Of a DNA stretch of 64,000 nucleotides, positions 1,574 through 24,167 are shown in pieces. The first letter of the stretch is position 1. Every line of letters starts with the position of its first letter. This DNA is from Planctomycetota bacterium. GTDB lineage: Bacteria; Planctomycetota; UBA1135; GCA-002686595. The notes under the pieces were generated by a model. The model had not been told where the DNA came from and made no database searches. It worked only from the letters and a program-made list of their open reading frames with translations. The stretch covers positions 33,935-97,934 of the forward strand of contig SIAI01000007.1 in NCBI GenBank assembly GCA_009691855.1. Reading direction: 5' to 3'. Position numbers and translations under genes: made by a program.

Positions 1574-1625
1574 ACTTCTATTCGCCGGCCGCCTGCACGG
1601 CGAGCAAGACTCCTGGAGTGGCGGA

Positions 1626-1790: not shown

Positions 1791-1849
1791 GGGTTGCGGG
1801 CGGTGCACGCGCTGAACGACTTGTTCTTTGGAAGCGCGCGGCCGCTCGC

Positions 1850-2563: not shown

Positions 2564-2567
2564 CGCC

Positions 2568-3020: not shown

Positions 3021-3224
3021 GGCCGTGCGGGGAGCTCGGGGTGGCTGTTCGACGCGAGTCTAGTGTCCCGTCGCGCGACTATCGCGAACGATCCGCCGCG
3101 CTGGGCCGACGTCGAGCTGCCTGGGGTCTCCTCCGACCAGCGCAGCGAAAGCTCGTCGGCGCGCTTTGGCAGCCCTCGATCCATCACGCGCGCGGCGCGG
3201 TAGCCCGCGCGGCTCCCTGGATGC

Positions 3225-3554
3225 TCAGCGCTCCGCTTGCATCCGCGTTAGCCGCAGGCGCACGCGCCCGTCGGGGCTCAGCGGCTTTACCTGCGCGAAG
3301 AGCTGCAGCACGACCAGGATCCACTCGCCCTGCTCGGCGCTGAGCTCGGCGCGCGGGGCCACGGACAGGACGAAGGGTCCGGGACGCTCGAGGACCAGGC
3401 GCGCGCTCGCGTGGCGGCGATGACTCAGCGTCAGGCGCAGCTCGAGCGGGAAAATGCAGGCCTCGCTCAGCTCGCCGCTGAGCGCCAGCCCTCCGCGGCG
3501 CGTGGGCAGGAGCGTTGGCTCGAAACGAAAAACCCGTGGGCGAGGGGCGCCCAA
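3225..3554 (-). CDS. small hypothetical protein (start uncertain)
   Basis: On the minus strand, third codon positions are almost all G/C across ~90 codons. There is no recognisable family (weak PilZ-like RR...R pattern only). It lies in an otherwise empty 580-bp gap. Confidence 0.35.
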   Translation of the reverse strand: MGAPRPRVFRFEPTLLPTRRGGLALSGELSEACIFPLELRLTLSHRRHASARLVLERPGPFVLSVAPRAELSAEQGEWILVVLQLFAQVKPLSPDGRVRLRLTRMQAER

Positions 3555-3600
3555 CCCGCCCTATCCTTTGCGCCTCCCCGCCGTCCGGAACCCGACGACC

Positions 3601-5700: not shown

Positions 5701-5742
5701 CGAAACGAAGGGGCCCGAAAGCCGTTGCGTGCCCTCGCGTGC

Positions 5743-7383
5743 TCAGCGGCGCGCGAAGAACAGGAGCTCCGTCTGGTGCCACACGTCGTCCAGCAGATCC
5801 CCGTCGCCGTTCAGGTCCCGGCCCTGGTCCGCCTCGGCCACCGAATAGAGGCTGTGGTCGCGGCCGTCCGGCGGAGTGGAGCGCACGGCCAGGCCCGTGT
5901 TCGTGAGCCGGCGCGTGGCTGATTCGTAGAGGTGGAGCACGCGGTCGAGGGTGTCGCCGTCGCCGTTCAGGTCGCGGCGCTGATCCTCGTCCAGCGCCAC
6001 CAGCACGATGTCCCCGCCCAGCATGCTCGCCGGTAGGGTCGCCGCGAGATGCGTGTTCACGAGCTCACCGCTGCCTTCGTCCCAGGTGAAGAGGACGGTG
6101 TCTTCCCGGTCGCCGTCGCCGTTCCAGTCGCGCCGGGCGAGGTCCTCGTCCGAGTGGATCAAGAGCCCGTGCTCGGCGGGCTGCACCCTGCCGGCGATTC
6201 CGAGGTTCAGCGTGTCGCCCGAGCGCGGGTCGTAGAGCAAGGGCACGTAGCCCGCGAGCACGCCGTTCCGGTCCAGGTCTTCGCCCTGGGCTTCTTCGTC
6301 GACCGAGATCACGAGCCGCTCGCCCAGCGCGCTCACGCCGATGGCCTCCAGCTCCGTGCTCTCCAAGAGGTCCTGTTCGGCGTCGTAGAGCCACACGACG
6401 CGCGTCGTGTCCGACCCGTCTTGGACGGCCACGACGAACGGCTCGATCCCCGGTAGGTCCACGAGCGGGAGGAATGGGCCGAGGTTGCGGCTCGTGCCGG
6501 TGCGGGGATCGTAGACGACGTGCTCGGTCCCACGGGTGTCGTCGTGCGCGAGGATCGACCAGCGCCCGCGGTGGGGCGCAGGCGCGCTCGGGCCGCCCCC
6601 GAATGCGGGCTCCAGGACGAAGCCGGTGAGCTGCAGCGTGCGCGCTCCGACGTCGTAGAACGCGGCGACGTAGTCGCCTTCGTCTCCGTCGCCATTGAGG
6701 TCGCCGAGCTCGTCCTCGTCGGCCGCCAGGGCCACGAACTCGCCGGACACCGCTCTGACCTGCAGCGCGCCTGGCGCGCCGAGGCTGCGCGTCTCGCCGG
6801 TGCGCCGGTCGTGCACGAAGGGCTCGGTCACGTAGGAATCGGTCCGGCCGTCGCCGTCGCGATCGACGGCTTCGCGCGCGACGTCGAACGCCAGCAGGTC
6901 CCTGGTCGTGACCACGAAGGTCACCGCCAGCCCGAGATTCGTGACGCTGGCGCTGTCGCGCTCGTAGAACGCCAGCACGATGTCGTCGGCGTCCCCGTCG
7001 CCGTTGCGATCGCGACCGCCGGTGGCGAGCTCGCTCACGCCGAAGGCGAGCGTCGGGCCCAGGCTCATGACCAGCGGCGACAGGCCGTAGCCGGACGAGG
7101 GCCCTTGGCCGAGCACGAGGCCGGTGTTGGTCACGCTGTGCTGGTACAGATCGAGGACGTGGACCACGGGGTCCACCGTATCGCCGTCCCCGTTCAGGTC
7201 GCGCCCCTCCTCGCGCTCGGACACAGTCAAGATGTGCACGCTGTCCCCGTCGAACGCGGTCCCCGTGAGACCGAGGTTGGTCGTGAACGTGCGATCGAGG
7301 GGAGCGCTCGACGAGCTCGGGTGGCAGGCCGCCGTGACGAGCGACAAGAGGAACGCGAGCGCAACCGGACGAAGTGAAGCCAT
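5743..7383 (-). CDS. lipoprotein with eight Ca-binding-like 'DLNGDGD' repeats (FG-GAP/beta-propeller-like)
   Basis: ATG at 7383 gives MASLRPVALAFLLSLVTAAC (lipobox). Repeats: RDLNGDGDTVD, RDRNGDGDADD, VDRDGDGRTD, GDLNGDGDEGD, EDLDRNGVLAG, RDWNGDGDRED, RDLNGDGDTLD, RDLNGDGDLLD, spaced ~60-70 aa apart. Confidence 0.8.
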   Translation of the reverse strand: MASLRPVALAFLLSLVTAACHPSSSSAPLDRTFTTNLGLTGTAFDGDSVHILTVSEREEGRDLNGDGDTVDPVVHVLDLYQHSVTNTGLVLGQGPSSGYGLSPLVMSLGPTLAFGVSELATGGRDRNGDGDADDIVLAFYERDSASVTNLGLAVTFVVTTRDLLAFDVAREAVDRDGDGRTDSYVTEPFVHDRRTGETRSLGAPGALQVRAVSGEFVALAADEDELGDLNGDGDEGDYVAAFYDVGARTLQLTGFVLEPAFGGGPSAPAPHRGRWSILAHDDTRGTEHVVYDPRTGTSRNLGPFLPLVDLPGIEPFVVAVQDGSDTTRVVWLYDAEQDLLESTELEAIGVSALGERLVISVDEEAQGEDLDRNGVLAGYVPLLYDPRSGDTLNLGIAGRVQPAEHGLLIHSDEDLARRDWNGDGDREDTVLFTWDEGSGELVNTHLAATLPASMLGGDIVLVALDEDQRRDLNGDGDTLDRVLHLYESATRRLTNTGLAVRSTPPDGRDHSLYSVAEADQGRDLNGDGDLLDDVWHQTELLFFARR

Positions 7384-7740
7384 GGGATTTTCCAAGGATG
7401 TGGGGCGCGCCTGTGCGGGCACCCCGAGGCCCAGGATTCCAGAGCGGTGCAAGGACAACATGGAGCCTCCTGATCCGCAGGACTTGCGCCGAAGGGCAAG
7501 GGGCGGGCCATTGTCGCCCGGCTGGAGAGGACCGAGTCTCTTCGAGACAGGCTGGGGGGTGCGCCTTTCCTCGCGTTGGCGAGCCCCCCGGAGAGAAGCC
7601 ACCTCGATCGACCGTGCGCGAGCGCACACTGCGAGTGCGGATCGGCGCACTCGACCGCCCCCGTCCGAGGCCGTGTTGGCGCACCTTCGAGCACGCGCAA
7701 ATGTGTGGGCCGGCAAAGATGGAGTCGCGCCGCCGGTACG

Positions 7741-8580
7741 ATGGGAGGCGTGACAATCGCTCGCTGGTTGTTGCTCGGTTGCCTCGGCGCGGGAGCGCTC
7801 GCGAGTGCTCCGCTCGCCGTGAGCGCTCAGGCCGACGTCGAAGCTCTCGTCCTGAGGCTGGGCTCGGAGGACGACGCCGTCCGCGCGCCGGCGATCGAGG
7901 AGCTCGCCAAGGGGGGCAAGAAGGTGGGCGAGCGCTTGCTCGCCGAGTTCGCCTCGCGGACAGCGAGCGAGCGCACCGTGACCGGCGTGGTCGAAGTCCT
8001 GGGCAAGATGAGGAGGACCGGCGCGCAGCTCCTCGGGGAGCAGGTCCTCCGGCCGATCGACTCCGGCTCCATCGAGCCGATCCTGAGCGCCCTGCGGGCG
8101 GTCGGCATCTGCGGACCGCCCGCGGCCTGGACGGCGCCTTCCCTGGTGAAGCTCATCGAGCGCAAGCCCCTGAAGGCCTACCTGCAGGCGTACCTCGAGG
8201 TGAAGGACACGGCGATCATCACCCTCGGCCGACTCGGGCCGACGACTCCCGCCGCCAGGGCACTGCTGAAGCGTGAGGTCGAGGCGCCCGAGCTTGGCAC
8301 GCGCGTGTCCAGCGCCTGCGCGCTGTGGTGGACGGGCAGCGCACCGGAGGACGTGTATCCCGTGTTCATCGAGGCGCTCGCCGCGAGCGACATGCCGCTG
8401 GAGCGCGCGATCTTCGGTCTCGGAGAGATGGGCCCGCACGCGAAAGAAGCGTTGCCCAAGCTCGCGAGCCTGAACGAGCGCGTCCAGCCGCAGACGCGGA
8501 TCACGATCGACGAGGCACGGCGCAAGATCGAGGGCTTCCTGGCGCCGAACGGCCCGCGGCCTGTCGAGACGGGCAAGTAA
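7741..8580 (+). CDS. secreted HEAT-repeat protein
   Basis: ATG 7741 gives the signal MGGVTIARWLLLGCLGAGALASAPLAVSAQA. Repeated helical units (AIEELAKGGKKVGERLL, ILSALRAVGICGPPA, IFGLGEMGPHAKEALPKL) are typical of HEAT/PBS-lyase repeats. Confidence 0.7.
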   Translation: MGGVTIARWLLLGCLGAGALASAPLAVSAQADVEALVLRLGSEDDAVRAPAIEELAKGGKKVGERLLAEFASRTASERTVTGVVEVLGKMRRTGAQLLGEQVLRPIDSGSIEPILSALRAVGICGPPAAWTAPSLVKLIERKPLKAYLQAYLEVKDTAIITLGRLGPTTPAARALLKREVEAPELGTRVSSACALWWTGSAPEDVYPVFIEALAASDMPLERAIFGLGEMGPHAKEALPKLASLNERVQPQTRITIDEARRKIEGFLAPNGPRPVETGK

Positions 8581-8681
8581 CCGCCCGCGCGCTTGCGCTG
8601 CGACGAGCCCGAGCTCGGCCGTGTTCGGCTCGTGTCGTTCCATGGATCAGGCTTGTGGACTCCCTCGTCGTCTGCTGAAAT

Positions 8682-8700
8682 ACGAATTGCATTCGCATTC
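8682..8700. promoter_or_regulatory. candidate TetR operator / promoter element
   Basis: AT-rich island ACGAATTGCATTCGCATTC 6 nt upstream of the TetR ATG. It contains the inverted repeat CGAAT-TGC-ATTCG and a tandem GCATTC GCATTC. Confidence 0.35.
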
Positions 8701-8705
8701 GACCC

Positions 8706-9374
8706 ATGCCCGAACCCACGCCCACCCACGCGCCCCTGCACCCGCAGCAGGAGCGCAGCCGCCAGACGGCCGAGCGCATCACCGCCGCGGCCCTGGCGCT
8801 GCTCGAGCGCAAGAGCTTCGCCGAGCTGTCGGTGGCCGAGATCGCGCGCAAGGCCGGGGTCAGCGTGGGCGGCTTCTACGCGCGCTTCCCCAGCAAGCAG
8901 GCGCTGCTGCAGTACTTCGACGCCACGATCGTCGAGGGCATCCTCGAGCGCGCGGCGCGCGAGCTCGACTCCGAACGTCTGGCCGACGCCGACGCGCGCA
9001 GCGTGGTGACGAGCTACATCCGCCTGGCGGTGACCATGTTTCGCCGCCACCGTCCGGTCTTGCAGCAGGTCGCGCTGCGCTCGCGCACCAGCACGGATCC
9101 CGCCTTCAAGCAGCGCATCCGCGACGCCAACGCCTTCCTGCACGGCCGCTTCCGCGCGCTGCTCGAGGAACGCCGCGCCGAGCTCGGCCATCCCGAACCG
9201 CGCGTGGCCATCGACCTCGGCCTCACCTTCGTCTCGGCCACGATGCGCGAGTACGTGCTGTTCGCCGAGTTCCGCCCCGACTTCGCGCCGCTCTCCGACG
9301 CGCGCCTCGTGCGCGAGCTCAGCGACGCCTTCTGCGCCTACCTGGGCATCGCCAACAAGAGGAACAAGTCATGA
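8706..9374 (+). CDS. TetR/AcrR-family transcriptional regulator
   Basis: N-terminal HTH FAELSVAEIARKAGVSVGGFYARFPSKQALL. The stop overlaps the next ATG (ATGA at 9371-9374). Confidence 0.9.
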   Translation: MPEPTPTHAPLHPQQERSRQTAERITAAALALLERKSFAELSVAEIARKAGVSVGGFYARFPSKQALLQYFDATIVEGILERAARELDSERLADADARSVVTSYIRLAVTMFRRHRPVLQQVALRSRTSTDPAFKQRIRDANAFLHGRFRALLEERRAELGHPEPRVAIDLGLTFVSATMREYVLFAEFRPDFAPLSDARLVRELSDAFCAYLGIANKRNKS

Positions 9375-11086
9375 GTCTCGTCGCCCGTCTGCTGCTGGGC
9401 CTCTCGTTCGTTGCGCTCGGCGCGTTCGCGCGGGGCCAGGACGCCGTCGAGCCGCTGGACGAGGCCAGCGCGGGCGAGCTGCGCGCGGCGCTGGCGCAGG
9501 CGACCCAGCCCGCCGCGCCCGGCGGGATCCTGGCCGTGCTGCGCCGCGGCGAGCCGTGCTTCGTGCAGCCCTTCGGTCTGGCCGAACTCGAGAGGCACGA
9601 GCCGATCACGCGCACGACGATCTTCTACCTCGCCAGCGTGGCCAAGCAGTTCACCGCCGCCTGCGTGTTGCACGCAGCCGCGGCGGGTAAGCTGGCGCTG
9701 GACGAGCCGATCACGAAGCGCGTCTCGGGCTTGCCCGCGAGCTACGGCGCGGTGCGCATCGTGAACCTCGTCGAGCACCGCGGCGGCGTGCCCGACATCT
9801 ACGACCTCGCCATCGGCCTCGACCTCGGGCGCGCGGCGCTGGCCTCGAACGCCAGCGCGCTGGCGTTGCTGCGCAAGCTGCCGCAGCTCGACTTCACCCC
9901 CGGCACGCGCTTCCGCTACTCGAACTCGGGCTACGTGCTGCTGGCCGAGGCGCTGGGCGTGGCCACGCAGAGTTCGCTCGCCGCCTACGCGCGCGCCAAC
10001 CTCTTCGCGCCGCTCGGCATGAAGAGCGCGCACTTCAACGGCGACGCCGAGCTCGCCAAGCTGCCGCGCGCGCGCAGCTACCACCGCGCGGGCGACGCCT
10101 GGGAGGCCCTCGAGATCACGACTGGACTCATCGGCCCCGGCGGGATGTGGGCCAGCCTTGACGACCTCGCGCGCTGGGAGCGCGCCGCCTTCGAGGGCGG
10201 CTTCGGCGACGCAGCGTTGCGCGCGCGTCTGGTGCAGCCGCCCGTGCTCGGCCCGCTCGCCTGGCTGCATCCGACGCTCGGAGCCTACGGTGCCGGCGTG
10301 ATGCTGAACACGGACCGCGGCCTGCCGGTCGTGCGCTCGGCCGGCGAGGCCTTCGGCTTCCAGGCCGAGATCCTGCGCTACCCCGAGCAGGAGCTGTCGA
10401 TCGTGGTGTTCGCCAACGCGGACCTCGAGCTCGACAACCTGGCCGAGGACACGGCGGGGGTCGTGCTGCGCGAGGAGTTCCGCGCGGCGCGCGAAGCCTC
10501 GGCCCGTGACGCCTCGAGCTCAGCGCGCGCCACGCCCGCGGATCTGGCGCGCTTCGGCCGCTTCTGGCGCGAGGAGGACTCGGGCGTCCTGTGGGTGCTC
10601 TCCTTGAAGCCGGAGCGCATGCTCGTGACCTCGCTGGGCGACTGGAAGTTCGAGCTCGCCTACGCCGGCCCCGCGCGCCTCGTGAGCCGAGACACACGTG
10701 CTCCCGCCGAGTTCGTGTTCGAGCCCGCCAGCGGTCCCGCCACGCGCATGCTCGTGCGCTCGGGCGGCGTCGAGGTCGCGCGCTGTCGCCCGCACCCGTT
10801 CCCGCCGGCGCAGCGCGCCGAGCTCGACGAGCTCGCCGGCGAGTACACGCTGACCGCGCTCGGCGTCACGATCCGCCTCCAGGCCGTGCAGGGTGGCCTG
10901 CAGCTCGCGCAGCCGCACGCGCTCGGCCCGAACTACGTGCTGCCTCCGTTCCAGGCGCTGGGCGAGGACTTCTTCGCCTGCGACGCCGGCGCGTGCCTGC
11001 AGTTCCACCGCGACGCGGCGGGCGAGCTCACGGGCCTGCGGATGGACGTGAACCGTGCCTCGGCGCTGGAACTCGTGCGCCGCTGA
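9371..11086 (+). CDS. secreted beta-lactamase-fold serine hydrolase with C-terminal extension
   Basis: Signal MSLVARLLLGLSFVALGAFARG. S-x-x-K motif LASVAKQF and Y-x-N motif YSNSGY. The ~200-aa C-terminal domain has no recognised family. Confidence 0.85.
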   Translation: MSLVARLLLGLSFVALGAFARGQDAVEPLDEASAGELRAALAQATQPAAPGGILAVLRRGEPCFVQPFGLAELERHEPITRTTIFYLASVAKQFTAACVLHAAAAGKLALDEPITKRVSGLPASYGAVRIVNLVEHRGGVPDIYDLAIGLDLGRAALASNASALALLRKLPQLDFTPGTRFRYSNSGYVLLAEALGVATQSSLAAYARANLFAPLGMKSAHFNGDAELAKLPRARSYHRAGDAWEALEITTGLIGPGGMWASLDDLARWERAAFEGGFGDAALRARLVQPPVLGPLAWLHPTLGAYGAGVMLNTDRGLPVVRSAGEAFGFQAEILRYPEQELSIVVFANADLELDNLAEDTAGVVLREEFRAAREASARDASSSARATPADLARFGRFWREEDSGVLWVLSLKPERMLVTSLGDWKFELAYAGPARLVSRDTRAPAEFVFEPASGPATRMLVRSGGVEVARCRPHPFPPAQRAELDELAGEYTLTALGVTIRLQAVQGGLQLAQPHALGPNYVLPPFQALGEDFFACDAGACLQFHRDAAGELTGLRMDVNRASALELVRR

Positions 11087-14000
11087 GCTCGATGCGCTGT
11101 GCCCGCTCCGCCAGCGCGCACAGGCCGTTGGCCAGGCGCATCTGTTCCGGCGTGCGGCACTCGGGCTCGAACAGCGCCGGCGAGGCGACGACGATGCACG
11201 CGCCGCGCGCGCGGCTGGTGGCAACGTTCAGGCGGTGCGGGTCGTAGAGGAACGGCAGACCGCGCGGCGCGTCGAGCGGGGTCGAGCTGGTGAGCGAGTA
11301 GAGCACCACCGGACGCTCCTGACCCTGGAACAGGTCCACGGTGCCGATGTGCAGGCCCTTCAGCGCGGTCGAGCGCGACAGCGCGGCGACCTGGGCGTTA
11401 TAGGGCGCGATGACGAGCAGATCGTCGCGCGTGAGCGCGCGCACTACGCCCTTCGCGTCGGTCCAGGTCACGCCGGGCTGCAGCAGGTCGGCCACGACGC
11501 GCTCGAGCATCGCCACTTCTTCGCTGGAGGAACTCTGGTTGCCGGCGTGCTCGACCTCGACCAGGAACAGACCGGAGCCGGCGAAGCGCGTCGGGCCGTC
11601 GAGGCGCTGGAGCTCGCAGCCGGCGTGCGCGCGCAGCCGCCCTTCGTAGTACAGCGTCGAGGTGAACGCGCACAGCGCCGGCGGAAGACGCCAGGTCTCG
11701 GCCAGGAACAGACCGCGCTCGGGGCGGATCGTGGGTTCGCCGCCGAGCAGATGAGCGAGCGCGGAGACGTCCGCGCCCTCGGGATGCGCGCCGCGCTGCG
11801 GTTGCTGGAGCTGCTGCGGATCGCCGAGCAAGACGAGGTTCTTCGCCGCGCGCGCGCAGGCCAGGACCTGTGCCAACGACATCTGCCCGGCCTCGTCGAT
11901 GAACAGGGTGTCGAGTTTCGCCTGCGCCGCCTCGGCGGCCCACAGCCAGGCGACGCCGCCGACGACGTGACCGCGGTCGAGCGCGGCGAGGGCCTCGTCC
12001 TTGTCCTCGCTCTCGAAGAGGCCCGGCGGCAGCGCCGCGACGGACAGCGCCTTGGGCTTGTGCGTGCAGGCGAGCTCGGCGCCGAGCTCGCGCGCTGCCG
12101 CGAGGCTCTCCAGCAGCAGCGTGCGCACGACCTTGTGCGAGACGGCGCTCACACCCACGCGCTGGCCCGCGCGCGCGAGCTCGACGACGAGGCGCGCGCC
12201 GCAGTAGGTCTTGCCCGCGCCCGGCGGGCCCTGGACGGCCAGCACGCCACCGTCGAGCGCGCGCGCGACGCGCCGCGCGGCCGCCAGGGGCTCCTCGCCT
12301 GGACGCTGCACGTCGCCGGTGTGCACCGGTCGCGTGCGCGGCCCTCGCGCCAGCAGGAGCTCACGGGCCGCGCGATGCTCGGGCCGCGCCGAATCGAGTC
12401 CGTGCTCGGCCACCCAGCGCCCGAGCTCCGCCACCGCGCCCGGCAACGGGCCGGGCGGCACGCGCTCCTGGACGTGCACGGCCCACGGATGGCGGTCCTT
12501 GGCCTTGAGTACCTTCTCGACGTCGACGAGGCCCTGACCAAGGTCGATGGCGTGCACCGTGCCGAGAGCGTCGGCGCCGTCCGCCGTCGGCGCGTGCACG
12601 TCGCGCAGCTCGTCACCGACGTCGAGCGCGACCTCCTGCGGCGGGAAGCGATAGCGGTGCAGCGGCTTGCGCTTGCCCTTCGCGAGCGGGAGCGCGCTGA
12701 CGAATTCGAGGCCCACGAGCGCCTTGCGCTCGCGGCGCAGCTCCTCGTCGTCGAGCTCGCGGCGCGCGAAGAACTCCCACCACGTGACGCGATCCTCGCG
12801 CTGGAAGTACTCGAGCAGATGCGCCAGCAGCCAGCGCGCGCGCTGCTCGTCCGTGCGTGCCTCGGCCTCGAGCGGGATGCCGGCGACGAGGCGCTCGAAC
12901 AGCGCCTTCAGCTCGGCGTCGCGCTCCTCGCGCTCTTCCGAGACCGCACCGTCCTTCAGCGGCGGGCGCTCGAGCGTGGCGCCGTCGGCTTCGAGTTCCG
13001 CACGCAGCTCCTCGAGCCAGCGCTGCAGCGCGATCAAGGACAGACAGTCGTCCTGGTTGTAGCCCTGCACCGCTTCGCGGTCGGCCGGCTCGATCAGGTG
13101 CCCGATGCCGTTCTCCAGCGCGGCGGAGACGCGCTCCAGCGCCGGGCGCGCCTCGTCGCGTAGATCGACCGCGCGCCGGTAGCCGAAGTGCGCCTCCAGC
13201 GGTTTGAGCGAGTAGCTTTCGACGCTCGCGCGCACGCCCTGACGCACGACGGCGTACAGATCGACGAAGCGCTCGGCGCGCAGCAACACATCGAGCTCGC
13301 GCTCGCGCGTCGCGTGCCGGCTGGCCAGACGCTTCAGCGCGGAGGGCTCGTAGGGCGCGTAGTGGTAGACGTGGAAGGCGGGGAAGCGCCGGACGCGCGC
13401 GCTCAGGAGATCGACGAAGCTCTCGAAGGCGCGCTTCTCGGCGTTGCGTTCGAGGGCCCACAGCGCTTCGTAGTGCGCCGCGCCGCCTTCGTCGCACCAC
13501 GCGTAGCCCAGCAGGTACTCGAGTCCGCCCGCGCCCGGCGCGCCCGCGAAGGGATCGCCCTCGAAGTCGAGGAACACGTCGCCCGCGTCGGGCTCGGGCA
13601 GGCGCGCGAGGCCGCGGCCGGGCTCGGGCGGCAGGAGCTCGTGCCGGGGCTGCTTCTCTTCACGCTCCTGGAGTTGCAGCCGCGCCTGGGCGTGCAATGC
13701 GTCGAAGGACTCGCGCTGACCGCGCAGCGGAGCCTCGTCCAGGGCCTGCGGCGCGCGCGCGAGCGCGGTGAGCGACGGGCGCTCCTGACGGCGCAGCTCG
13801 TCCGCCTGCGCGCGGCGCATGCCGGCGACCAGCGACAGGTGGTCGTCGGCGCGACGGCGCGTGTCGCAGCGCTGCCACCAGCGGCAGATCTCGCAGTGCT
13901 CGACGGGCTCCGGGTAGGGCTCGGTCTCGGCGCCGGCCACGAACGCGGCCAGGCGAGCCTTGATCTGGCGGTAATAGGCCGCGAAGGCGTCGAAGCGGAA

Positions 14001-14534
14001 CTCCTCGCCAGGGAAGCCGGCGCCGGGCTTGACCACGCGCAGCGTCGTGGCCGGTGAGCCCTGCAGCGTCGCGAGGAGGTCCGCGTACAGACACAACTGC
14101 AGCACCGTGCCGCCGCGCGTCTCCTGGGCGAGCTTGGTGTCCTGCACCTCGTACGACCAGGCGAGATCGCGACTCGGCGTGTTCGTGCGCACGAGCACGT
14201 CGGCCGAGCCCAGCCAGCGCCCATCTCGTAGCGCCGCCTGCACGATGACCTCGACGCCAGCTTGCACGGCTGCGCGCGTGCGCCGTTCGGCCTCGGGACG
14301 CGCGAGGCCGTTGAGCTCGAGCACCTCACGCTCCTGCGAGCGCAGCCAGGCGACGTAGGCGCGCTCGTGCTCCTCTCCGCGCTGCTTCAGCCGCTCGAGC
14401 GCCGGATCCTTCCAGCCGGGCTTGGCAAGCTCGCCGCGGGCCACCCGCCGATCCAGGAACGAGAGGTGCGCGCAGGCGAGGTGGTTGGCCAGGTCCGAGG
14501 CGGATAGCTCGAGCTCGCCGTTCTGGAGCCGCAC
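11028..14534 (-). CDS. RecB/Cas4-like Fe-S nuclease + RNase H-like domain + Upf1/DNA2-like SF1 helicase (TM0106-type)
   Basis: 1168 aa with GTG start at 14534. N-terminal Cys (LACAHL) plus EHCEICRWWQRC (C-x2-C-x5-C) as in Cas4/AddB nucleases. FLDFEGDPF exonuclease-like motif. Helicase Walker A GPPGAGKTY, motif II FIDEAGQ, and later LGDPQQLQQP, DLFQGQERPVV, NVATSRAR. Confidence 0.9.
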   Translation of the reverse strand: MRLQNGELELSASDLANHLACAHLSFLDRRVARGELAKPGWKDPALERLKQRGEEHERAYVAWLRSQEREVLELNGLARPEAERRTRAAVQAGVEVIVQAALRDGRWLGSADVLVRTNTPSRDLAWSYEVQDTKLAQETRGGTVLQLCLYADLLATLQGSPATTLRVVKPGAGFPGEEFRFDAFAAYYRQIKARLAAFVAGAETEPYPEPVEHCEICRWWQRCDTRRRADDHLSLVAGMRRAQADELRRQERPSLTALARAPQALDEAPLRGQRESFDALHAQARLQLQEREEKQPRHELLPPEPGRGLARLPEPDAGDVFLDFEGDPFAGAPGAGGLEYLLGYAWCDEGGAAHYEALWALERNAEKRAFESFVDLLSARVRRFPAFHVYHYAPYEPSALKRLASRHATRERELDVLLRAERFVDLYAVVRQGVRASVESYSLKPLEAHFGYRRAVDLRDEARPALERVSAALENGIGHLIEPADREAVQGYNQDDCLSLIALQRWLEELRAELEADGATLERPPLKDGAVSEEREERDAELKALFERLVAGIPLEAEARTDEQRARWLLAHLLEYFQREDRVTWWEFFARRELDDEELRRERKALVGLEFVSALPLAKGKRKPLHRYRFPPQEVALDVGDELRDVHAPTADGADALGTVHAIDLGQGLVDVEKVLKAKDRHPWAVHVQERVPPGPLPGAVAELGRWVAEHGLDSARPEHRAARELLLARGPRTRPVHTGDVQRPGEEPLAAARRVARALDGGVLAVQGPPGAGKTYCGARLVVELARAGQRVGVSAVSHKVVRTLLLESLAAARELGAELACTHKPKALSVAALPPGLFESEDKDEALAALDRGHVVGGVAWLWAAEAAQAKLDTLFIDEAGQMSLAQVLACARAAKNLVLLGDPQQLQQPQRGAHPEGADVSALAHLLGGEPTIRPERGLFLAETWRLPPALCAFTSTLYYEGRLRAHAGCELQRLDGPTRFAGSGLFLVEVEHAGNQSSSSEEVAMLERVVADLLQPGVTWTDAKGVVRALTRDDLLVIAPYNAQVAALSRSTALKGLHIGTVDLFQGQERPVVLYSLTSSTPLDAPRGLPFLYDPHRLNVATSRARGACIVVASPALFEPECRTPEQMRLANGLCALAERAQRIELSGARVPAPRHGSRPSAGP

Positions 14535-14537
14535 GCC

Positions 14538-14957
14538 CTAGAGCGCCCGCCCGCAGCCCTGACAGAAGCGCGCATCGGCCTCGTTGCGACGCTTGCAGTG
14601 CGCGCATTCGAGCATCACGACCTGCTTCGCCTGGCGCGCCAGGCCGGCCTCGTCGAGCGCGTCCTTGGCGAGGCCCCCGGCCATGCGCGCGTAGGGTTCG
14701 AGATCCTCGCGGGCTCGCTCGGGATCGAGCACCACGCCCGAACCCGCCAGCCCGCGCGCGCCGACGCGGCTCAGGACCTTCCCCCCGATCACCAGAGCAA
14801 TGCCGAGGAGCGGGCGCAGAAAGGGCGAGTCAGGACCGTTCGTGAACGGCTCGCGAGTTCGGAAGACGCTCAACACGAAGATCAGGAGGCCGAGCGCGAT
14901 CAGCGCGATGCCGCCGTAGTGGGCCGCCTTCCGCTCTGCTGAGACCGTGCGCACCAT
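14538..14957 (-). CDS. membrane protein with C-terminal zinc-ribbon
   Basis: Two hydrophobic helices (GGIALIALGLLIFVLSV, LLGIALVIGGKVL) and a C-terminal CAHCKRRNEADARFCQGCG (CxxC...CxxC). Its TAG stop is 3 nt before the GTG of the nuclease-helicase. Confidence 0.7.
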   Translation of the reverse strand: MVRTVSAERKAAHYGGIALIALGLLIFVLSVFRTREPFTNGPDSPFLRPLLGIALVIGGKVLSRVGARGLAGSGVVLDPERAREDLEPYARMAGGLAKDALDEAGLARQAKQVVMLECAHCKRRNEADARFCQGCGRAL

Positions 14958-15005
14958 GGGACTCCTCCGCGTCCCACTCTATCCGCGCGCAGCGCGGCGA
15001 CGGCG

Positions 15006-15656
15006 TTACTTCCCGTAGCGCAGCTCGACCACCGAGGGCTTCACCGGCGCGTCGTTGGGCGGCAGGTACAGCACGAACAGCCGGTCGTATTCGTCGTCGC
15101 CGAGCTGCGGACCCTGGGGCGTCTCGTTGAGGCCGGAGAGCGCGACGCCCAGGCGCGCGGCGAGGGCCGGCAGCGTGTTCGAGTGGCCGGAGACGACGAT
15201 CACGCTGCCCGGTTCGGCGCTGACGAGCTCGGTGGCTAGGGCCTCGAGCTCGGCCGCGGGGCGCACGTCCACGCCGAGCTTCAGCCGTTCGGAGAGCGGC
15301 GCGAGCGTGGCCTGCGTGCGCTGGTATTCGCTGGCGACCAGGCGCGTCGCGCCGCAGCGTGCCAGCGTGCGCGCGAGCTCCTCGGCGCGTTCCTTGCCCG
15401 CGGCGGAGAGCTCCGGGTCCTTGGGGTCGCCCTCGGTGCTCTTCTCCGCGTGCCGCACCAGGATCACCATGCGCGGCGCGAGGCGCATCTGCGCCGTGCC
15501 GCGCGCGTCGTGCCCACGCGCCAGCGCCAGCGGCAGCGCGGCGAACAGGGCGACGGGGAAGAACAGGACCAGGCGGCGGGGGAGGCTCATGCGCTCCATG
15601 GAACGGACCCGGCCTCCGTGCCGCAAGCCTCGCGCGCGCCGACGGGTGTTTTCCAT
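15006..15656 (-). CDS. exported histidine-phosphatase-family protein (SixA/PGAM-like)
   Basis: Signal SLPRRLVLFFPVALFAALPLALARG. Catalytic LVRHAEK (RH motif) and VVSGHSNTL. Confidence 0.8.
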   Translation of the reverse strand: MENTRRRARGLRHGGRVRSMERMSLPRRLVLFFPVALFAALPLALARGHDARGTAQMRLAPRMVILVRHAEKSTEGDPKDPELSAAGKERAEELARTLARCGATRLVASEYQRTQATLAPLSERLKLGVDVRPAAELEALATELVSAEPGSVIVVSGHSNTLPALAARLGVALSGLNETPQGPQLGDDEYDRLFVLYLPPNDAPVKPSVVELRYGK

Positions 15657-15714
15657 CCTCCAAGCGCGGAACGGCGGCCGGATTCGGGTCCCGCGCGGCG
15701 CGGTGCGCGTCGGG

Positions 15715-16584
15715 TCAGGCCACGCGCTGTGGCCGGGCGGAGCCGCGCTCGATTTCCCGCACCAGCTCGTGAGCGGCCGTCAGCGACGCGTTGCGCTCGT
15801 GCCGCACGAGCTCGATCGCGGCGAAGCGTTCGCCGCGCGCCAGGAAATCGCGCACGCGCTGCTCGAGCCCACGCCCATCCGGGAGGTCGAGGTCCACCTC
15901 GCGCGGCTCCTCCAGGCGCACTTGCTTGCCGAGCTCGCGCAGCAGCGCGCGCGACACGCGCTCGACGCGTACCAGCCCCTCGGCGGAGACGAGCACGGGC
16001 ACGTGGTTGCTGCGCGTGCGCCCGCGGATGCCCAGGCAGCGTCTCTCCGGGCCCTGGCGCGTGCGCTCGCGCTGGACGAGCTCGGCGAGTTCGCGCGTGT
16101 CGATGTCCAGCAAGCGCAGCTCGAGCCAGCCGAAGTTGTGCGTCGAGCGCTCGCCAGCGCGGCCGCGCTCGTAGGACTCGCGCACGGCGCGAACCGAGTC
16201 GATCTCGGCGTAGCGCAGGAACGCGACCGTCGGCGCGTCGTCGGGGAAGTGGCGGTTCTGGTACGAGCGCAGGTTCAGGTACAGGCCCTCGTCGGTGGTC
16301 TTCACGATCCAGTTCGTGGCGCGGAACGAGCTGCGCAAGGCGCCGGCGAGGGCGCAGAGACACAGCAGCCAGCTCCCGCCCACGATCAGCGCCACGGGCG
16401 CCACGGCCAGCCACACGTACCACGGCAACTCGCCCGCGATCGTCAGGAGGCGCGCGTGGTTCACGAGCGCCAGCGCCAGCGGCGCGGACAGGCTCGCCAG
16501 CAACACCAGGAGTCCGAACCACCCGTGGCGGAAGGTGCGCGTGACGCGTTCTCTTGTGACGTCGGCCGGGTGCAGGAGCTGCAT
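15715..16584 (-). CDS. membrane protein, bPH-like middle region and L7/L12-C-like tail
   Basis: ATG 16584 (MQLLHP...). TM helices WFGLLVLLASLSAPLALALV and VWLAVAPVALIVGGSWLLCLCALAG. The C-terminal RDFLARGERFAAIELVRHERNASLTAAHELVREIE resembles the L7/L12 C-terminal-like module. Confidence 0.55.
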   Translation of the reverse strand: MQLLHPADVTRERVTRTFRHGWFGLLVLLASLSAPLALALVNHARLLTIAGELPWYVWLAVAPVALIVGGSWLLCLCALAGALRSSFRATNWIVKTTDEGLYLNLRSYQNRHFPDDAPTVAFLRYAEIDSVRAVRESYERGRAGERSTHNFGWLELRLLDIDTRELAELVQRERTRQGPERRCLGIRGRTRSNHVPVLVSAEGLVRVERVSRALLRELGKQVRLEEPREVDLDLPDGRGLEQRVRDFLARGERFAAIELVRHERNASLTAAHELVREIERGSARPQRVA

Positions 16585-20662: not shown

Positions 20663-22051
20663 TCACTCGCCGAAGCGCTGCTTCACCGTCTCCAGGAACA
20701 CATCGGCGTGTGACTTCTCGCCGTCGCGGTGCGGGTGGCCCACGGCGGGGTTCGCGTTGCGCAAGTCCTCGAAGGACGTCAGGCGCGTGATCAGCTTGCC
20801 CTCGGGCGAGAGGAACACGAAGTCGAGCGGGTACTGGTGCTGCTCGAGCAGCATGGTCGCCAGGGCGAAGTGCTCCTTGCCCAGGCGCTTCTGGATGTCG
20901 TCGATGATGATCCAGGTGCTGACGAACTTCTGGTTGATCGTCTCGATCACCCGCGCGTCCGAGAGCAGACCTGCTCTCAAGTCGGTTCCACTGGGTCAAC
21001 AACTCTGGTCGTCGAGCGGGCTGGTCAACACCACCGCGAAGATCGGCTTGTGCAGCTCCTGCGCGAGGCCGAGCATCTCCTCGACCGGCACCCAGTCGAT
21101 GTCCATGAACTTGTAGAAGGCGCGCTTGAGCTGATCGTGCGCGTCGTCCAGCGCGAGCGCGCCCGCGGCGTCGGCCTGCGCCAGCCGCCCGGCGTCGCCG
21201 CCGACGAGCTCCATCGTCTCGACGTGCTCGAAGACGATGTTCGTGGCCTTGTTCTTGGGTTGGTCCGGGAGCTTGAAGGTCACCGTGAGGTTCACGTTGA
21301 CCGGCCGGTCCGTCGGCACGCGCAGCTGGAAGGCCTCGACCGTGCCGCTCTTCCGGTCGACGAGCATGCGCCCGAGGAAGCACGCCGGCGTGTACAGCAC
21401 CGCGCCCTCGGAGAGCACGAACTCGGCGTGCACGCGGAAGAGGATGTCGAGCGACTCGGGCGTGACCGCGCGCAGAATGGCGAAGGCCCCCGGCGGACCG
21501 GGCCGGCGGCCGTAGGGCTGGCGGTAGCGGTCGAAGTGCATCGACGTGCCCGCGTGGAACTGCCGCAGCAGCGCCTCCGCTTGCTCGAGGTCGATCTTCC
21601 ACATCTGCCCCACGCCCGTGATCTCCTGCGGCAGGAACGCGGACAGCTCGTGGGCGCCGTAAGTCGCGTGCTCGTGGGCCGGGACCGACTCGGTCAGCAG
21701 CGCGACGATGTCGTCGGGGATCGAGTACTCGGGTGCGGAGGTGCCGTCGATCACGCCGAGCTTGATGCCCGTGCGCTTCGACTCCATCAGGGTCGGCTTC
21801 CAGTGCGCGCTCACCGCGAGGGGACCCTGCCCGTGGAGTTCCGCATGCACATCCCCGTGGAATCCGTCCGGCACCGCCACGTCCGGGTTGGTTTGGACCG
21901 TCTCGTACTCGAACTTCTGCTTCCCGCCGGCCGTGTTCGCCTTCGGCGCCGCCGACGCGGACTCCGCGGGAGCCTTCGGCGCGGGGGCCTGCTCGCCGCA
22001 GCCGCCGAGGGCCGCCAGCAGGACGAGGGTCACGCCATGGAGCGTCTTCAT
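20663..22051 (-). CDS. candidate selenoprotein: lipoprotein with C-terminal thioredoxin/peroxiredoxin-like fold, in-frame UGA at 20998..20996
   Basis: ORFs 20996..22051 and 20663..20980 share one frame and are separated by a single TGA. Read-through gives KPIFAVVLTSPLDDQSC-U-PSGTDLRAGLLSDARVIETINQKFVSTWIIIDD. A SECIS-like hairpin lies 17 nt downstream. N-terminal lipobox LLAALGGC. Confidence 0.6.
20961..20998 (-). promoter_or_regulatory. UGA codon plus bacterial SECIS-like hairpin
   Basis: mRNA: UGA CCCAGUGGAACCGACUU GAGAGC-AGGUCU-GCUCUC. It forms a 6-bp perfect stem with a GGUC-containing loop. The apical GCAGGUCUGC equals the apex of the E. coli fdhF SECIS as I recall it. Confidence 0.55.
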
Positions 22052-22516: not shown

Positions 22517-24167
22517 CACGCTCGGGGCTGTCTTTCTGGGAGCGCTGCTCTTCGGCTGCGCGCTCGCCTGCGTCGCGTTGCAGGCGCCGACCGTCGTCGG
22601 CTCCGCTCTTGACTGGCCCCAGGGCCCAGGGCCGCGCGGGGACTGGAGCGTCCAGGGCGCGGCTCCACCGCTGCGCTTCAGCGCGCGCACGGGCGAGAAC
22701 CTGAGGTGGCGTGCAGCCCTACCCGAGACGGGGCAGGGGGGCATCACGGTCGTCGGCAACCGTCTGTACGTGGCCACGATGGCGCCCTGGGATCCGGCGC
22801 ACGCGCTGAGCGCGGCCGAGGCCGAGCGCTTCGCGCACGCGACCGAGGGCCGCAGCGTCGTCGGCACGGGCATCGACGCGCATGCCTTCGACGCCGAGAC
22901 CGGCAGGCTCCTGTGGACGCGTCGGATCACCGGCACCGTGCCCGCGATCTACTCCTATCCGTTCTCGGACGCGACCAGCGCCTCGCCGGTCGCCGACGCG
23001 ACGCACGTGTGGTTCACGAACGCGAGCGGCACGCTCGCGTGCTTCACGAGTGAGGGCGAGCTCGTGTGGCAGCGCCGCTTCACGCCGACTTCCGACGGGC
23101 CGTTCAACAAGCAGTTCGAGCCGTTCCTCGTCCAGGACGGCGCGCGCTCGGTACTCGTGCACATGGAGCCCTTCCCCGCGCCCGATGCCGATCCGAGCGA
23201 GCTCCACGGCCGCTGGCACCACCTCGTCGGCCTCGACGCCGAGACTGGCGAGCTGCTGTGGACGAGCGCCGACGCGCTCACGCAGTACAACGCGCCGACG
23301 CTGGTCGCGAGCGCGCAGGGTCCGTGCGCACTGCATGCGCGCGGCGGTCCCCACGACGTGCCCGAGCGGCCGGTGGGCGTCACGCTGACGCGCCTCACGG
23401 GCGAACGCGCGGGCACGGCCGTGTGGCGCTACGAGGACCCGCGCGGGAACCACGAGGGCGCGCTGCAGACGATGGCCCACGACGAGCGCTTCGCTTATTG
23501 GGCCCTGCGCGACCCGCGCAGCGCGCTGGTCGTGCTCGACCTCGCCACGGGCGCGGAGGTCGCCGAGATCTCGCTCGTGCACGGCGTGAGCGTGACCAGC
23601 CACGACGCCGCCAGCGGCGCCTGGACGACGCAGAGGGGTATCGACCTCGAGCTCGGCGTGTTCCCCGCGCGCTACTCGCTCATCGCCGCCCACGGCCACG
23701 TCTTCTTCCAGTGCTACGCCGCCGCCTTCGGCGCGACGACCGTCGGGCCGGCCTACTCCTTCGCGCGCGTCGATCCCGCGGCCCACACCGCCGAGTACCT
23801 CGAGGTCCCGACCGACGTCGTGCGCGGCACGCCCGACACGTTTCTCTGGCGCACGCCGCGCTCGGCGCGCGCGCTGAACAGCCGTGGCGTCGAGGTCACC
23901 GGCGACGAGCGCTCGCGCTGGGACGGCTGGGACTGGGTCTTCAACGGCTCGCCGACGCGCGTGAACGAGCGCCTGTACTTCACGCTGGCGAGCGGCGTCG
24001 TGTACGTGCTCGATTCCAGCCGCGAAGCCTTCGACGCGCAGTCGCTGCTGGCCCTCGACGACCTTGGACCGAGCGGCGCGGTGTGGAGCGCGAACTCCAT
24101 TTCGTACGCCACAGGCCGCCTCTACCACCGCACCGCCGCCGAGCTCTTCTGCTTCGGCGCGCGCTGA
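22506..24167 (+). CDS. exported PQQ-like beta-propeller repeat protein
   Basis: Lipoprotein-like signal VFLGALLFGCALAC. Repeated 'G.LLW...' blades (TGRLLWTRR, GELVWQRRF, GELLWTSAD, LYF..ASGVVYVLD). Confidence 0.65.
   Translation: MRASTLGAVFLGALLFGCALACVALQAPTVVGSALDWPQGPGPRGDWSVQGAAPPLRFSARTGENLRWRAALPETGQGGITVVGNRLYVATMAPWDPAHALSAAEAERFAHATEGRSVVGTGIDAHAFDAETGRLLWTRRITGTVPAIYSYPFSDATSASPVADATHVWFTNASGTLACFTSEGELVWQRRFTPTSDGPFNKQFEPFLVQDGARSVLVHMEPFPAPDADPSELHGRWHHLVGLDAETGELLWTSADALTQYNAPTLVASAQGPCALHARGGPHDVPERPVGVTLTRLTGERAGTAVWRYEDPRGNHEGALQTMAHDERFAYWALRDPRSALVVLDLATGAEVAEISLVHGVSVTSHDAASGAWTTQRGIDLELGVFPARYSLIAAHGHVFFQCYAAAFGATTVGPAYSFARVDPAAHTAEYLEVPTDVVRGTPDTFLWRTPRSARALNSRGVEVTGDERSRWDGWDWVFNGSPTRVNERLYFTLASGVVYVLDSSREAFDAQSLLALDDLGPSGAVWSANSISYATGRLYHRTAAELFCFGAR

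Follow-up and report, generated by a model that had tools for sequence, protein, structure and literature searches.

An in-frame UGA and a SECIS-type hairpin in a bacterial homologue of selenoprotein N

Two adjacent minus-strand open reading frames of a Planctomycetota bacterium are separated by a single TGA. We asked whether this TGA ends a gene or encodes selenocysteine (Sec), and what the product would be. The window analysed is the whole 64-kb stretch of DNA that contains the locus. The TGA almost certainly encodes Sec, with a probability of about 0.88 for the reading given below. The product is a homologue of animal selenoprotein N (SELENON, SelenoN), a human muscle-disease protein of unclear biochemistry. 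It is predicted to be membrane anchored. We found no description of bacterial members of this family.

Reading frame across the UGA

The observation made in a preliminary description of this locus was confirmed. Both ORFs, the shared frame, the single TGA and the downstream hairpin are present (Table 1). The read-through product is ...LTSPLDDQSC-U-PSGTDLRAGLLSDARVIETINQKFVSTW.... GC3 is 0.95 upstream and 0.94 downstream of the TGA in the same frame, and coding continues. This is the only in-frame TGA in the window with coding-like composition on both sides.

Table 1. Coordinates of the features of the locus in the 64-kb window (all on the minus strand)
Position	Feature	Description	Evidence
20663..22051	Complete read-through coding sequence	462 codons including Sec352, plus the terminal TGA; encodes a bacterial SelenoN-like protein, putatively a prolipoprotein	One frame; BLASTP against animal selenoprotein N, E = 5e-27 and 3e-28 over residues 183-446
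20996..22051	Upstream ORF	351 aa, ATG start	
20663..20980	Downstream ORF	105 aa, TTG start	
21998..22051	Putative signal peptide with lipobox	MKTLHGVTLVLLAALGG-C18	By inspection: K2, a hydrophobic stretch and L-G-G-C18; close homologues have LVGC, VSGC, LAGC or LASC at the same place; more distant ones have an N-terminal transmembrane helix or an ordinary signal peptide
21152..21916	N-terminal beta-rich domain shared with SelenoN	About residues 46-300; motifs include SAFLP, VGQxW, QFH, GRRPGPxGAF, FRVHAEF, YTPAxFxGR and VPTD	Conserved alignment columns; residues 183 onward align to animal SelenoN; pLDDT mostly above 90 in the AlphaFold2 model of relative P0023; no sequence or fold relative in the PDB
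20666..21151	C-terminal predicted thioredoxin-fold domain, split by the UGA	About residues 301-462	beta-alpha-beta-alpha-beta-alpha-beta-beta-alpha order in the P0023 model; Foldseek matches to 7TKV (Thioredox_DsbH), 3IRA, 2LST, ERp19 and AGR2, probability 0.97-1.00; a profile places Sec on the first Cys of CPYC in 2LST
20999..21001	Cys351 codon (TGT)	Cys directly before Sec	Invariant in three family alignments
20996..20998	Sec352 codon (UGA)		TGA in 146 of 147 family copies in the fetched loci, TGC in one; a clade of Cys forms exists
20961..20978	Bacterial SECIS hairpin	GAGAGC-AGGUCU-GCUCUC; stem extends to 7 bp, GAGAGCA/UGCUCUC (nt 21-27 and 32-38 counted from the U of UGA); loop GGUC (nt 28-31, 20971..20968)	-9.4 kcal/mol; 99% of cells paired in 27-28 relatives, with A-U to G-C and C-G to U-A swaps and an invariant loop
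20951..20998	Full recoding cassette	UGA plus 45 nt	Recognised by the family covariance model; cluster of rare codons (AGT, GGA, TTG, AGA, GCA, GGT)
20663..20665	True terminator (TGA)		TGA ends 27 of 34 coding-like ORFs in the window and is the normal stop codon here

Conservation of the UGA column

Related gene copies were fetched from Planctomycetota, Poribacteria and one deltaproteobacterial MAG. Each TGA copy is followed by 105 to 420 further in-frame codons with conserved motifs. The copies extend down to about 30% identity. Of 61 database homologues, 60 were called as ORFs that end exactly at ...QSC. The single TGC copy is at one fetched locus (L019). At least 17 protein clusters also carry Cys and read ...DESC-C-GSGK.... 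Some family members have lost the Sec column. It is TTA (Leu) in relative P0023, TGG (Trp) in P0118 and Ala in P0105. MAFFT alignments that mixed N-terminal ORFs with C-terminal fragments misaligned, and full-length Cys forms were added as anchors.

The downstream hairpin

The published bacterial SECIS model requires a 3-9 nt loop, a 4-16 bp stem, a G in the first two loop positions, 16-37 nt of spacing and a free energy of -7.5 kcal/mol or lower (PMC13188914). The hairpin in the window meets these criteria, with 24 nt of spacing. Of 130 family hairpins, 119 are at or below -7.5 kcal/mol. Folding energy alone is not exceptional in this 71%-GC sequence, as 24% of synonymous recodings fold as stably. 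The hairpin is written in rare codons. Eight of the gene's 26 A/T-ending codons lie in codons 350-361. TTG-AGA-GCA-GGT have usage frequencies of 0.052, 0.010, 0.044 and 0.093 in the window.

A single structure register imposed on all 130 hairpins gave muddled counts. The family uses two registers offset by 2 nt, and these were analysed separately. In the window-type register, 98.9% of cells are paired. Pair 27-32 is G-C (21) or A-U (6), and pair 26-33 is C-G, U-A or U.G. None of 500 shuffles reached the score. In the Poribacteria register, 99.7% of cells are paired, and A never faces C. These compensatory changes indicate that the hairpin is maintained by selection, although the sequences are related and the region also encodes a conserved peptide. 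A covariance model built from 27 relatives, without the window, gave one strong hit in the window (47.6 bits, E = 4.2e-13). The next best hit scored 10.3 bits. An Rfam scan of the region gave no SECIS hit and nothing else relevant.

The preliminary description had stated that the apex is identical to that of the E. coli fdhF SECIS, and this holds. The E. coli fdhF sequence after its TGA, TGACACGGCCCATCGGTTGCAGGTCTGCACC..., contains the same GCAGGTCTGC. That 47-mer occurs in 5,420 of 5,426 complete E. coli genomes under the fdhF annotation.

Protein family and predicted fold

Pfam and NCBIfam scans of the read-through protein gave no hit. This is uninformative, because Pfam has no model for animal SelenoN either. 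A phmmer search with P0023 reached proteins that their sources name selenoprotein N, from hagfish and Tasmanian devil, at E = 1e-17 to 1e-27. The window protein aligns to these collinearly across both domains, with Sec on the SC-U-G column. S-C-U is present and aligned. The fourth residue is Pro in the clade of the window (SCUP) and Gly or Ala in Poribacteria. No EF-hand was found, and the homology starts after the EF-hand region of the animal protein.

The AlphaFold2 model of P0023 had a pLDDT of 88 and a pTM of 0.84. P0023 is 39% identical and has Leu at the Sec position. The C-terminal domain of the model is of the DsbH/Thioredoxin_7 type, with the redox residue at the N-terminus of the first long helix. 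Foldseek probability was 1.00 to 7TKV, 3IRA and 2LST. PF03190 matches were only weak (13 of 30 relatives, best E = 3.6e-4).

Most family members, including the gene in the window, have no signalling module. A search of 11 loci found no conserved gene neighbour, and no substrate or reductant was found. One Poribacteria subfamily fuses the domain pair to an N-terminal ECF sigma factor and a transmembrane helix. Tandem arrays and LRR fusions also occur in the bacterial family.

Sec machinery

No selA, selB, selC or selD was found in the window, as the preliminary description had noted, or in the 1.4 Mb of fetched flanks. ARAGORN found no tRNA-Sec in the window or in 79 flanking loci. Searches (tblastn) of the window and loci with approximate E. 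coli SelD and SelA sequences returned nothing. This was expected by chance and is not informative about the genomes. The ability of the source genome to decode Sec is thus inferred, with support only at the level of lineage. Complete Sec machinery is reported in several Planctomycetes (PMC4807772), and Sec-containing hydrogenases are reported in Poribacteria (PMC13582414).

Interpretation

The locus is best explained as one gene for a 462-residue selenoprotein homologous to SelenoN. The analysis itself shows the open frame, the conserved UGA column with its Cys forms, the covarying hairpin and the homology to SelenoN, while the architecture rests on homology and on a model of a relative. Sec insertion, export, lipid anchoring and catalysis are inferred. 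By the established SelB mechanism, the hairpin 17 nt downstream of UGA352 would recruit SelB carrying Sec-tRNA(Sec). Sec would be inserted, and translation would run 110 more codons to the TGA stop. From the signal peptide and lipobox, the product would be exported and lipid anchored at Cys18, facing the periplasm. In this view Sec352 occupies the position of the nucleophilic Cys of the usual CxxC motif, at the start of an alpha helix. The usual resolving Cys is a Gly, and the invariant neighbour Cys351 replaces it. By analogy with the GCUG end of thioredoxin reductase and the SCUG motif of SelenoN, the selenolate may attack an oxidised thiol, such as a disulfide or sulfenic acid, on an envelope protein. 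Cys351 would then resolve the adduct into a vicinal selenenylsulfide, which an unidentified periplasmic reductant would recycle.

The earlier interpretation was therefore supported in part. It had proposed a recoded Sec codon at the redox position of a thioredoxin fold, next to a Cys, a bacterial SECIS and a lipoprotein N-terminus, and these proposals were supported, the last by inspection. It had also compared the active site with the peroxiredoxin signature. This was not upheld, as no Prx or Redoxin family appeared in the Pfam, NCBIfam or PDB profile searches or among the Foldseek top hits. It had further stated that the N-terminal region of about 340 aa matches no family and that the architecture looks undescribed. 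This is wrong, because the whole protein, including the Cys-Sec dyad, is homologous to animal SelenoN. What appears undescribed is the bacterial branch.

It is very unlikely that the TGA is a genuine stop, whether between two genes or in a gene recently broken by a nonsense mutation or sequencing error. Gene callers and NCBI do annotate a 351-aa ORF plus a 105-aa "hypothetical protein EXS08_04050", and no Sec machinery is visible in the window. However, the same break recurs in three phyla as TGA and never as TAA or TAG. The two halves together form one predicted thioredoxin fold, and the Cys forms and animal SelenoN read straight through. The codon is followed by a conserved, covarying hairpin, and the downstream ORF has only a TTG start inside the hairpin region. 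Read-through without Sec is also unlikely, either by near-cognate insertion of Trp, Cys or Arg stimulated by the hairpin or by lineage-wide reassignment of UGA. A downstream hairpin can stimulate non-Sec read-through, as the eukaryotic Sec redefinition element (SRE) does (PMC12936836). No Sec machinery was seen for the source genome, and one relative has TGG in this column, but that copy has a degenerate hairpin and motif. TGA is the ordinary stop codon of the window and ends this gene itself. The sense codon that replaces it repeatedly is Cys, the hallmark of Sec/Cys pairs. The loop and closing pairs equal the SelB-binding apex of fdhF, and the homologous codon in animal SelenoN is an established Sec (PMC12839072).

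A selenoprotein whose dyad acts not as a reductase but as a redox or metal sensing site, or as a peroxidase, is less likely but less easily set aside. The ECF sigma fusion has the layout of a signal-transducing sensor. Animal SelenoN is described as a sensor-regulator (PMC12839072), and CU motifs also occur in metal-handling selenoproteins (PMC13188914). Against this, most members lack such a module, and the fold and active-site position are those of thiol-disulfide oxidoreductases. None of the present results distinguishes these chemistries. A further, tentative hypothesis is that SelenoN was exchanged between bacteria and an early eukaryotic or animal lineage. The SRE hairpin of eukaryotic SELENON mRNAs, where human disease mutations map, would then be the evolutionary remnant of the bacterial SECIS. 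Three eukaryotic SelenoN mRNAs (two transcripts and a spliced rotifer gene) have the apical loop at nt 27-31 after the UGA, the same nucleotides as in the bacterial hairpins. In a rough neighbour-joining tree, the eukaryotes form one clade that sits among bacterial groups under midpoint rooting, which is unreliable. Covariance models of the bacterial hairpins did not detect the eukaryotic ones, and the spacing could be convergent because of ribosome geometry. An Rfam scan of three eukaryotic SelenoN contigs gave no SECIS at E <= 0.01.

Significance

SELENON is a human disease gene (SELENON-related myopathy). Its catalytic activity and structure remain poorly defined, and no SelenoN structure was found in the PDB copy searched. 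The bacterial branch spans 344 clusters at 50% identity, includes natural Cys forms and occurs in Planctomycetota, Poribacteria and others. It offers simple, soluble, single-gene models for structure and enzymology. It adds a family that is missing from a 2026 inventory of 119 prokaryotic selenoprotein families. No paper that we could search mentions a bacterial or prokaryotic SelenoN, although a Poribacteria homologue may have been mentioned previously. Every UGA copy seen in the protein searches is split into two hypothetical proteins, a systematic misannotation. The branch also gives a testable origin for the SRE hairpin. The tandem arrays and ECF-sigma fusions in sponge-symbiont Poribacteria suggest an unexplored selenium-dependent layer of envelope redox biology.

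Comparison with known systems

Animal selenoprotein N is homologous over the beta-rich and thioredoxin-like domains (27-30% identity). Shared motifs include FRxHAEF, (Y/F)TPAxFxG, VPxxxxxNV, LDDQSC-U, xxLRxxxLxS and NxxF(V/I)STW. Both have one Sec codon directly after an invariant Cys, and an RNA hairpin directly follows the UGA. Both proteins are placed on the non-cytoplasmic, oxidising side of a membrane, the bacterial one by inference. The bacterial protein has no EF-hand and no type II ER anchor and instead has a lipoprotein-type signal. Its Sec insertion would depend on a bacterial SECIS within the ORF and not on a 3'-UTR SECIS. Its clade has SCUP rather than SCUG. Cys forms, tandem arrays and sigma-factor or LRR fusions also occur in the bacterial family.

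The E. coli fdhF SECIS is the prototype bacterial SECIS bound by SelB. It is also a hairpin just 3' of the UGA inside the ORF, with an identical apex, GCA-GGUC-UGC. The loop in the window is 6 nt further from the UGA (nt 28-31 against 22-25). The window stem has no bulged U, and the lower stem is unrelated. SelB binding in the window is inferred from this similarity.

The Thioredox_DsbH/Thioredoxin_7 proteins (PF03190, PF13899; PDB 7TKV, 3IRA, 2LST; ERp18/19, AGR2) are the best structural and profile matches of the C-terminal domain. The Sec aligns with the first Cys of CxxC at the helix N-terminus. The window protein has no CxxC but C-U-P-S-G, in which the resolving Cys is Gly and a vicinal Cys precedes the Sec. 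Its sequence similarity is below Pfam thresholds, and it is fused to a domain with no match in the PDB.

The C-terminal GCUG redox centre of mammalian thioredoxin reductase also has a vicinal Cys-Sec pair, expected to cycle through an eight-membered selenenylsulfide ring. This parallel is drawn for SelenoN in PMC12839072. There is no homology. In thioredoxin reductase the dyad is on a flexible C-terminal tail of a flavoenzyme, and here it is internal, at the active-site position of a predicted thioredoxin fold.

Reading frame and hairpin

The preliminary description of this locus held. It had reported two minus-strand ORFs in one frame, separated by a single TGA and followed by a hairpin. The upstream ORF encodes 351 aa from an ATG start, and the downstream ORF encodes 105 aa from a TTG start. 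Translation of the whole region in one frame gave a single internal stop within ...AVVLTSPLDDQSC*PSGTDLRAGLLSDARVIETINQKFVSTW... The window is 71% G+C. The third-position G+C content was 0.95 before the TGA and 0.94 after it in this frame. A scan of all six frames showed that this is the only in-frame TGA flanked on both sides by coding-like composition. A second candidate has high GC3 on both sides, but it is the stop of a PQQ_2-repeat gene that is immediately followed in the same frame by a 5'-3' exonuclease gene. It is not a recoding site.

The hairpin is GAGAGCA-GGUC-UGCUCUC, with a free energy of -9.4 kcal/mol. The preliminary description had claimed that its apex is identical to that of the Escherichia coli fdhF SECIS, and this is right. 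The 47-mer TGACACGGCCCATCGGTTGCAGGTCTGCACCAATCGGTCGGTAATGG was found in 5420 of 5426 complete E. coli genomes under the fdhF annotation. It contains the same GCAGGTCTGC, 6 nt closer to the TGA.

Coordinates of features in the window and in fetched loci (locus handles, L; homologous proteins, P)
Sequence	Feature	Coordinates	Strand
Window	Upstream ORF	20996..22051	minus
Window	Downstream ORF, annotated separately	20663..20980	minus
Window	Read-through frame	22051..20663	minus
Window	In-frame TGA	20998..20996	minus
Window	Hairpin	20978..20961	minus
Window	Covariance model hit	20998..20951	minus
Window	Similar segments before and after the Sec (protein level)	21040-21110 and 20900-20960	
Window	TGA between two abutting genes	24165-24167	plus
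L070, Candidatus Poribacteria	Tandem paralogue array	4468-15780	
L075, Candidatus Poribacteria	Tandem paralogue array	1305-12818	
L055, Candidatus Poribacteria	Tandem paralogue array	4774-13742	
L016	ECF sigma factor fusion	8945-11053 region	
L018, Poribacteria	Copy with C-terminal extension	14760	
L070, Poribacteria	Copy with C-terminal extension	10691	
L012, Poribacteria	Copy with C-terminal extension	10775	
L002, Planctomycetota	Leucine-rich-repeat fusion	2267-3925	
L080, eukaryote-type SelenoN transcript	Hairpin after the UGA	1349-1414	
L083, eukaryote-type SelenoN transcript	Hairpin after the UGA	1833-1898	
L086, Rotaria socialis gene	Hairpin after the UGA, split by an intron	2361 plus the next exon at 2445	
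L081	Copy with TTA (P0023)	1860-3230	
L082	Copy with TGG (P0118)	97-1677	
L051, Poribacteria	Copy with stops shortly after the hairpin	5919	

Conservation of the TGA

A search of 5.8 billion proteins returned 61 homologues at 33-78% identity. Sixty of them were called as ORFs ending exactly at ...[DN]Q[ST]C. A scan of one genome per GTDB species found 324 relatives, and 79 loci were fetched. These loci come from Planctomycetota, one "Deltaproteobacteria" MAG, and many Candidatus Poribacteria. We located 147 family copies in them. The column contains TGA in 146 copies and TGC in one (locus L019). In every case the frame continues for 105-420 codons with conserved motifs. These are PSGTDLRAGLLS or [AG][ST]GK.LR...LS, followed by ..LN..F[VI].[TV]W.

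An exhaustive phmmer search of 1.84 billion cluster representatives found 344 clusters. Most matches stop at the Cys before the UGA, and a subset reads through with Cys. A profile search recovered at least 17 such Cys forms reading ...DESC-C-G[ST]GK..LRAGPLS. Other replacements are rare and look secondary. The relative P0023 contains TTA (Leu). Its hairpin is intact, and it sits next to a normal TGA paralogue. The relative P0118 contains TGG (Trp), with a degenerate hairpin and motif. The relative P0105 contains Ala. One Poribacteria copy, in locus L051, has stops shortly after the hairpin.

TGA is the usual terminator in the window. It ends 27 of 34 coding-like ORFs, including this gene, so the codon is not reassigned genome-wide. 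Conserved UGA, a conserved downstream frame, and Cys homologues together are the standard comparative signature of a selenoprotein.

Public annotation splits the gene. The downstream third is deposited as separate ~95-112-aa hypothetical proteins, both for the window and for homologues P0062-P0078, and the upstream part is deposited as ~340-370-aa ones. The nearest database entry to the downstream ORF is "hypothetical protein EXS08_04050 [Planctomycetes bacterium]" at 99% identity. The 351-aa ORF is also on record in ENA assembly ERZ1305449.

The hairpin behaves as a bacterial SECIS

The published consensus asks for a 3-9 nt loop, a 4-16 bp stem, a G in the first two loop positions, 16-37 nt between UGA and loop, and a free energy of -7.5 kcal/mol or lower (PMC13188914). 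The window hairpin has a GGUC loop, a 7-bp stem, and 24 nt of spacing, and its free energy is also within the limit.

Across the family the hairpin uses two registers. The window type (28 distinct sequences) pairs nt 21-27 with nt 32-38. The GGUC loop is invariant, and 99% of cells are paired. The closing pair is A-U in 7 sequences and G-C in 21, with no mismatch. The next pair is C-G (21), U-A (3), U.G (3) or, in one sequence, mismatched. The main Poribacteria type (102 sequences) pairs nt 21-26 with nt 31-36. It has an AGGU or AGUU loop, and 98-99.7% of cells are paired. In this type the synonymous AGA Arg codon, and the Ala-to-Thr change GCA to ACA, occur only when the partner base is U and never when it is C. 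Several of these swaps change the encoded amino acid (Leu to Pro, Ala to Val). The RNA pairing is therefore being preserved at the expense of the peptide.

A covariance model was built from 27 relatives, without the window. It scored the window site at 47.6 bits (E = 4.2e-13). Nothing else in the 64 kb scored above 10.3 bits. Folding energy alone is not discriminating at this G+C content, and an Rfam scan returned no matching family. In a gene with 95% GC3, the cassette is written in rare codons: AGT, GGA, TTG (5%), AGA (1%), GCA (4%), and GGT (9%). Eight of the gene's 26 A/T-ending codons fall in codons 350-361.

Protein family

Pfam and NCBIfam scans of the read-through protein returned no hit. 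The phmmer search also hit EF-hand-containing eukaryotic proteins with ...LVHSIILWGALDDQSC[UG]SGRTLRE..L.S..IL.LL...FISTW. Two of them, from Eptatretus burgeri and Sarcophilus harrisii, are named "Selenoprotein N" by their sources. The window read-through aligns collinearly with these two over residues 183-446, at 27-30% identity and E = 5e-27 and 3e-28. Its Sec falls on the SC-U-G column. Animal SelenoN itself has no Pfam model, which explains the empty scans.

The family varies in architecture. Three Candidatus Poribacteria loci (L070, L075, and L055) contain tandem arrays of six to eight UGA-containing SelenoN-like paralogues within about 12 kb of a 20-kb locus. Several separate loci occur per genome, a large expansion of the family in sponge symbionts. 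One Poribacteria subfamily (L016, L019, L027, L033, and protein P0129) is a single ORF of an ECF sigma factor (Sigma70_r2, r4_2, ECF), a transmembrane helix, and the SelenoN-like module. The only TGC copy among the fetched loci belongs to this subfamily. Many Poribacteria copies, including those in L018, L070, and L012, continue for ~245-290 or ~380-420 residues after the Sec. The extensions contain a repeated module (...FRTPEAGYQDYTVVEIDATAFENGG...KLGATG.W.SEKG..NAF.AKISVE). The one extension scanned, from L018, has no Pfam match. A Planctomycetota copy (L002) carries an N-terminal leucine-rich-repeat domain (LRR_6, LRR_4, LRR_8) in front of the SelenoN-like module. In the window protein, the segment FYKFMDIDWVPVEE before the Sec resembles INQKFVSTWIIIDD after it, closely enough to mislead MAFFT when fragments are aligned. 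This may be chance or an internal repeat of beta-strand motifs.

Predicted fold

The fold was modelled for P0023, a full-length relative with 39% identity to the window protein, using a checked 55-row alignment. The model is confident, with a pLDDT of 88 and a pTM of 0.84. Residues 61-271 form a beta-rich domain with no credible match in the PDB. Its Foldseek probability was 0.06 or lower, and a sequence profile found nothing. Residues ~305-451 form a thioredoxin fold. The best matches were Thioredox_DsbH from Brucella (7TKV), 3IRA, Thermus thioredoxin 2LST, ERp19/ERp18, and AGR2, at probability 0.97-1.00. A profile of this domain from 30 relatives aligns Sec with the first Cys of CPYC in 2LST and a Gly with the second Cys. 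Thirteen of the 30 relatives weakly match PF03190. In the model the Sec column sits at the start of helix 339-346. The preliminary description had compared the site with a peroxiredoxin active site, but this is not a peroxiredoxin.

Proposed mechanism and alternatives

The interpretation offered in the preliminary description, a candidate novel selenocysteine lipoprotein whose N-terminal region matches no recognized family, was partly supported. The analysis itself establishes the recoding signals, the family membership, the fold, and an invariant Cys-Sec dyad. Arg at Sec+7 and Asn are also invariant. What we propose beyond this is inference, namely, SelB-dependent Sec insertion at UGA352, export and lipidation, and a redox cycle. 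In this cycle Sec352 would attack an oxidized thiol on an envelope protein. Cys351 would then resolve the adduct into a vicinal selenenylsulfide, which a periplasmic reductant yet to be identified would recycle.

A sensing role is a live alternative to this redox cycle. The fusion of the module to an ECF sigma factor plus a transmembrane helix in one Poribacteria subfamily is in keeping with it. No conserved neighboring gene points to a partner. The window and all fetched flanks contain no selA, selB, selC, or selD, and support for Sec decoding is only at the level of the lineage. Complete Sec machinery is reported in several Planctomycetes (PMC4807772), and Sec-containing hydrogenases are reported in Poribacteria (PMC13582414).

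Relation to described selenoproteins

The 2026 inventory of prokaryotic selenoproteins lists 119 families and subfamilies. None is SelenoN, and none fits this protein (PMC13188914). All families carrying NCBIfam models are excluded by the empty NCBIfam scan. A 2026 SelenoN review does not mention bacteria (PMC12839072). No paper mentioning a bacterial or prokaryotic SelenoN, SelN, or selenoprotein N was found in the literature searched, which lacked most subscription journals, and a Poribacteria homologue may have been noted before. We therefore regard the gene as a bacterial form of the known selenoprotein N family and not as categorically new.

Eukaryotic SELENON mRNAs carry a "Sec redefinition element" (SRE) hairpin just after the UGA, in which disease mutations occur (PMC12936836). 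We examined two eukaryote-type SelenoN transcripts (L080 and L083) and the spliced Rotaria socialis gene (L086). All three form a long hairpin right after the UGA. Its apical loop falls at nt 27-31 after the U of UGA, the same nucleotides as the bacterial SECIS loop. In the rotifer the hairpin forms only after splicing. The bacterial covariance models do not detect the eukaryotic hairpins, so common descent of the SRE and the bacterial SECIS remains a tentative hypothesis. A rough neighbor-joining tree makes the eukaryotes one clade (100% bootstrap) that sits among bacterial groups under midpoint rooting.

SelenoN is an ER-membrane protein. Its lumenal part carries an EF-hand, a thioredoxin-like region, and the SCUG redox motif, which is likened to the GCUG of thioredoxin reductase (PMC12839072). 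The bacterial proteins lack the EF-hand. They begin instead with a putative lipoprotein signal (LLAALGG-C18 in the window), an ordinary signal peptide, or a transmembrane helix. They too should therefore face the oxidizing, non-cytoplasmic compartment.
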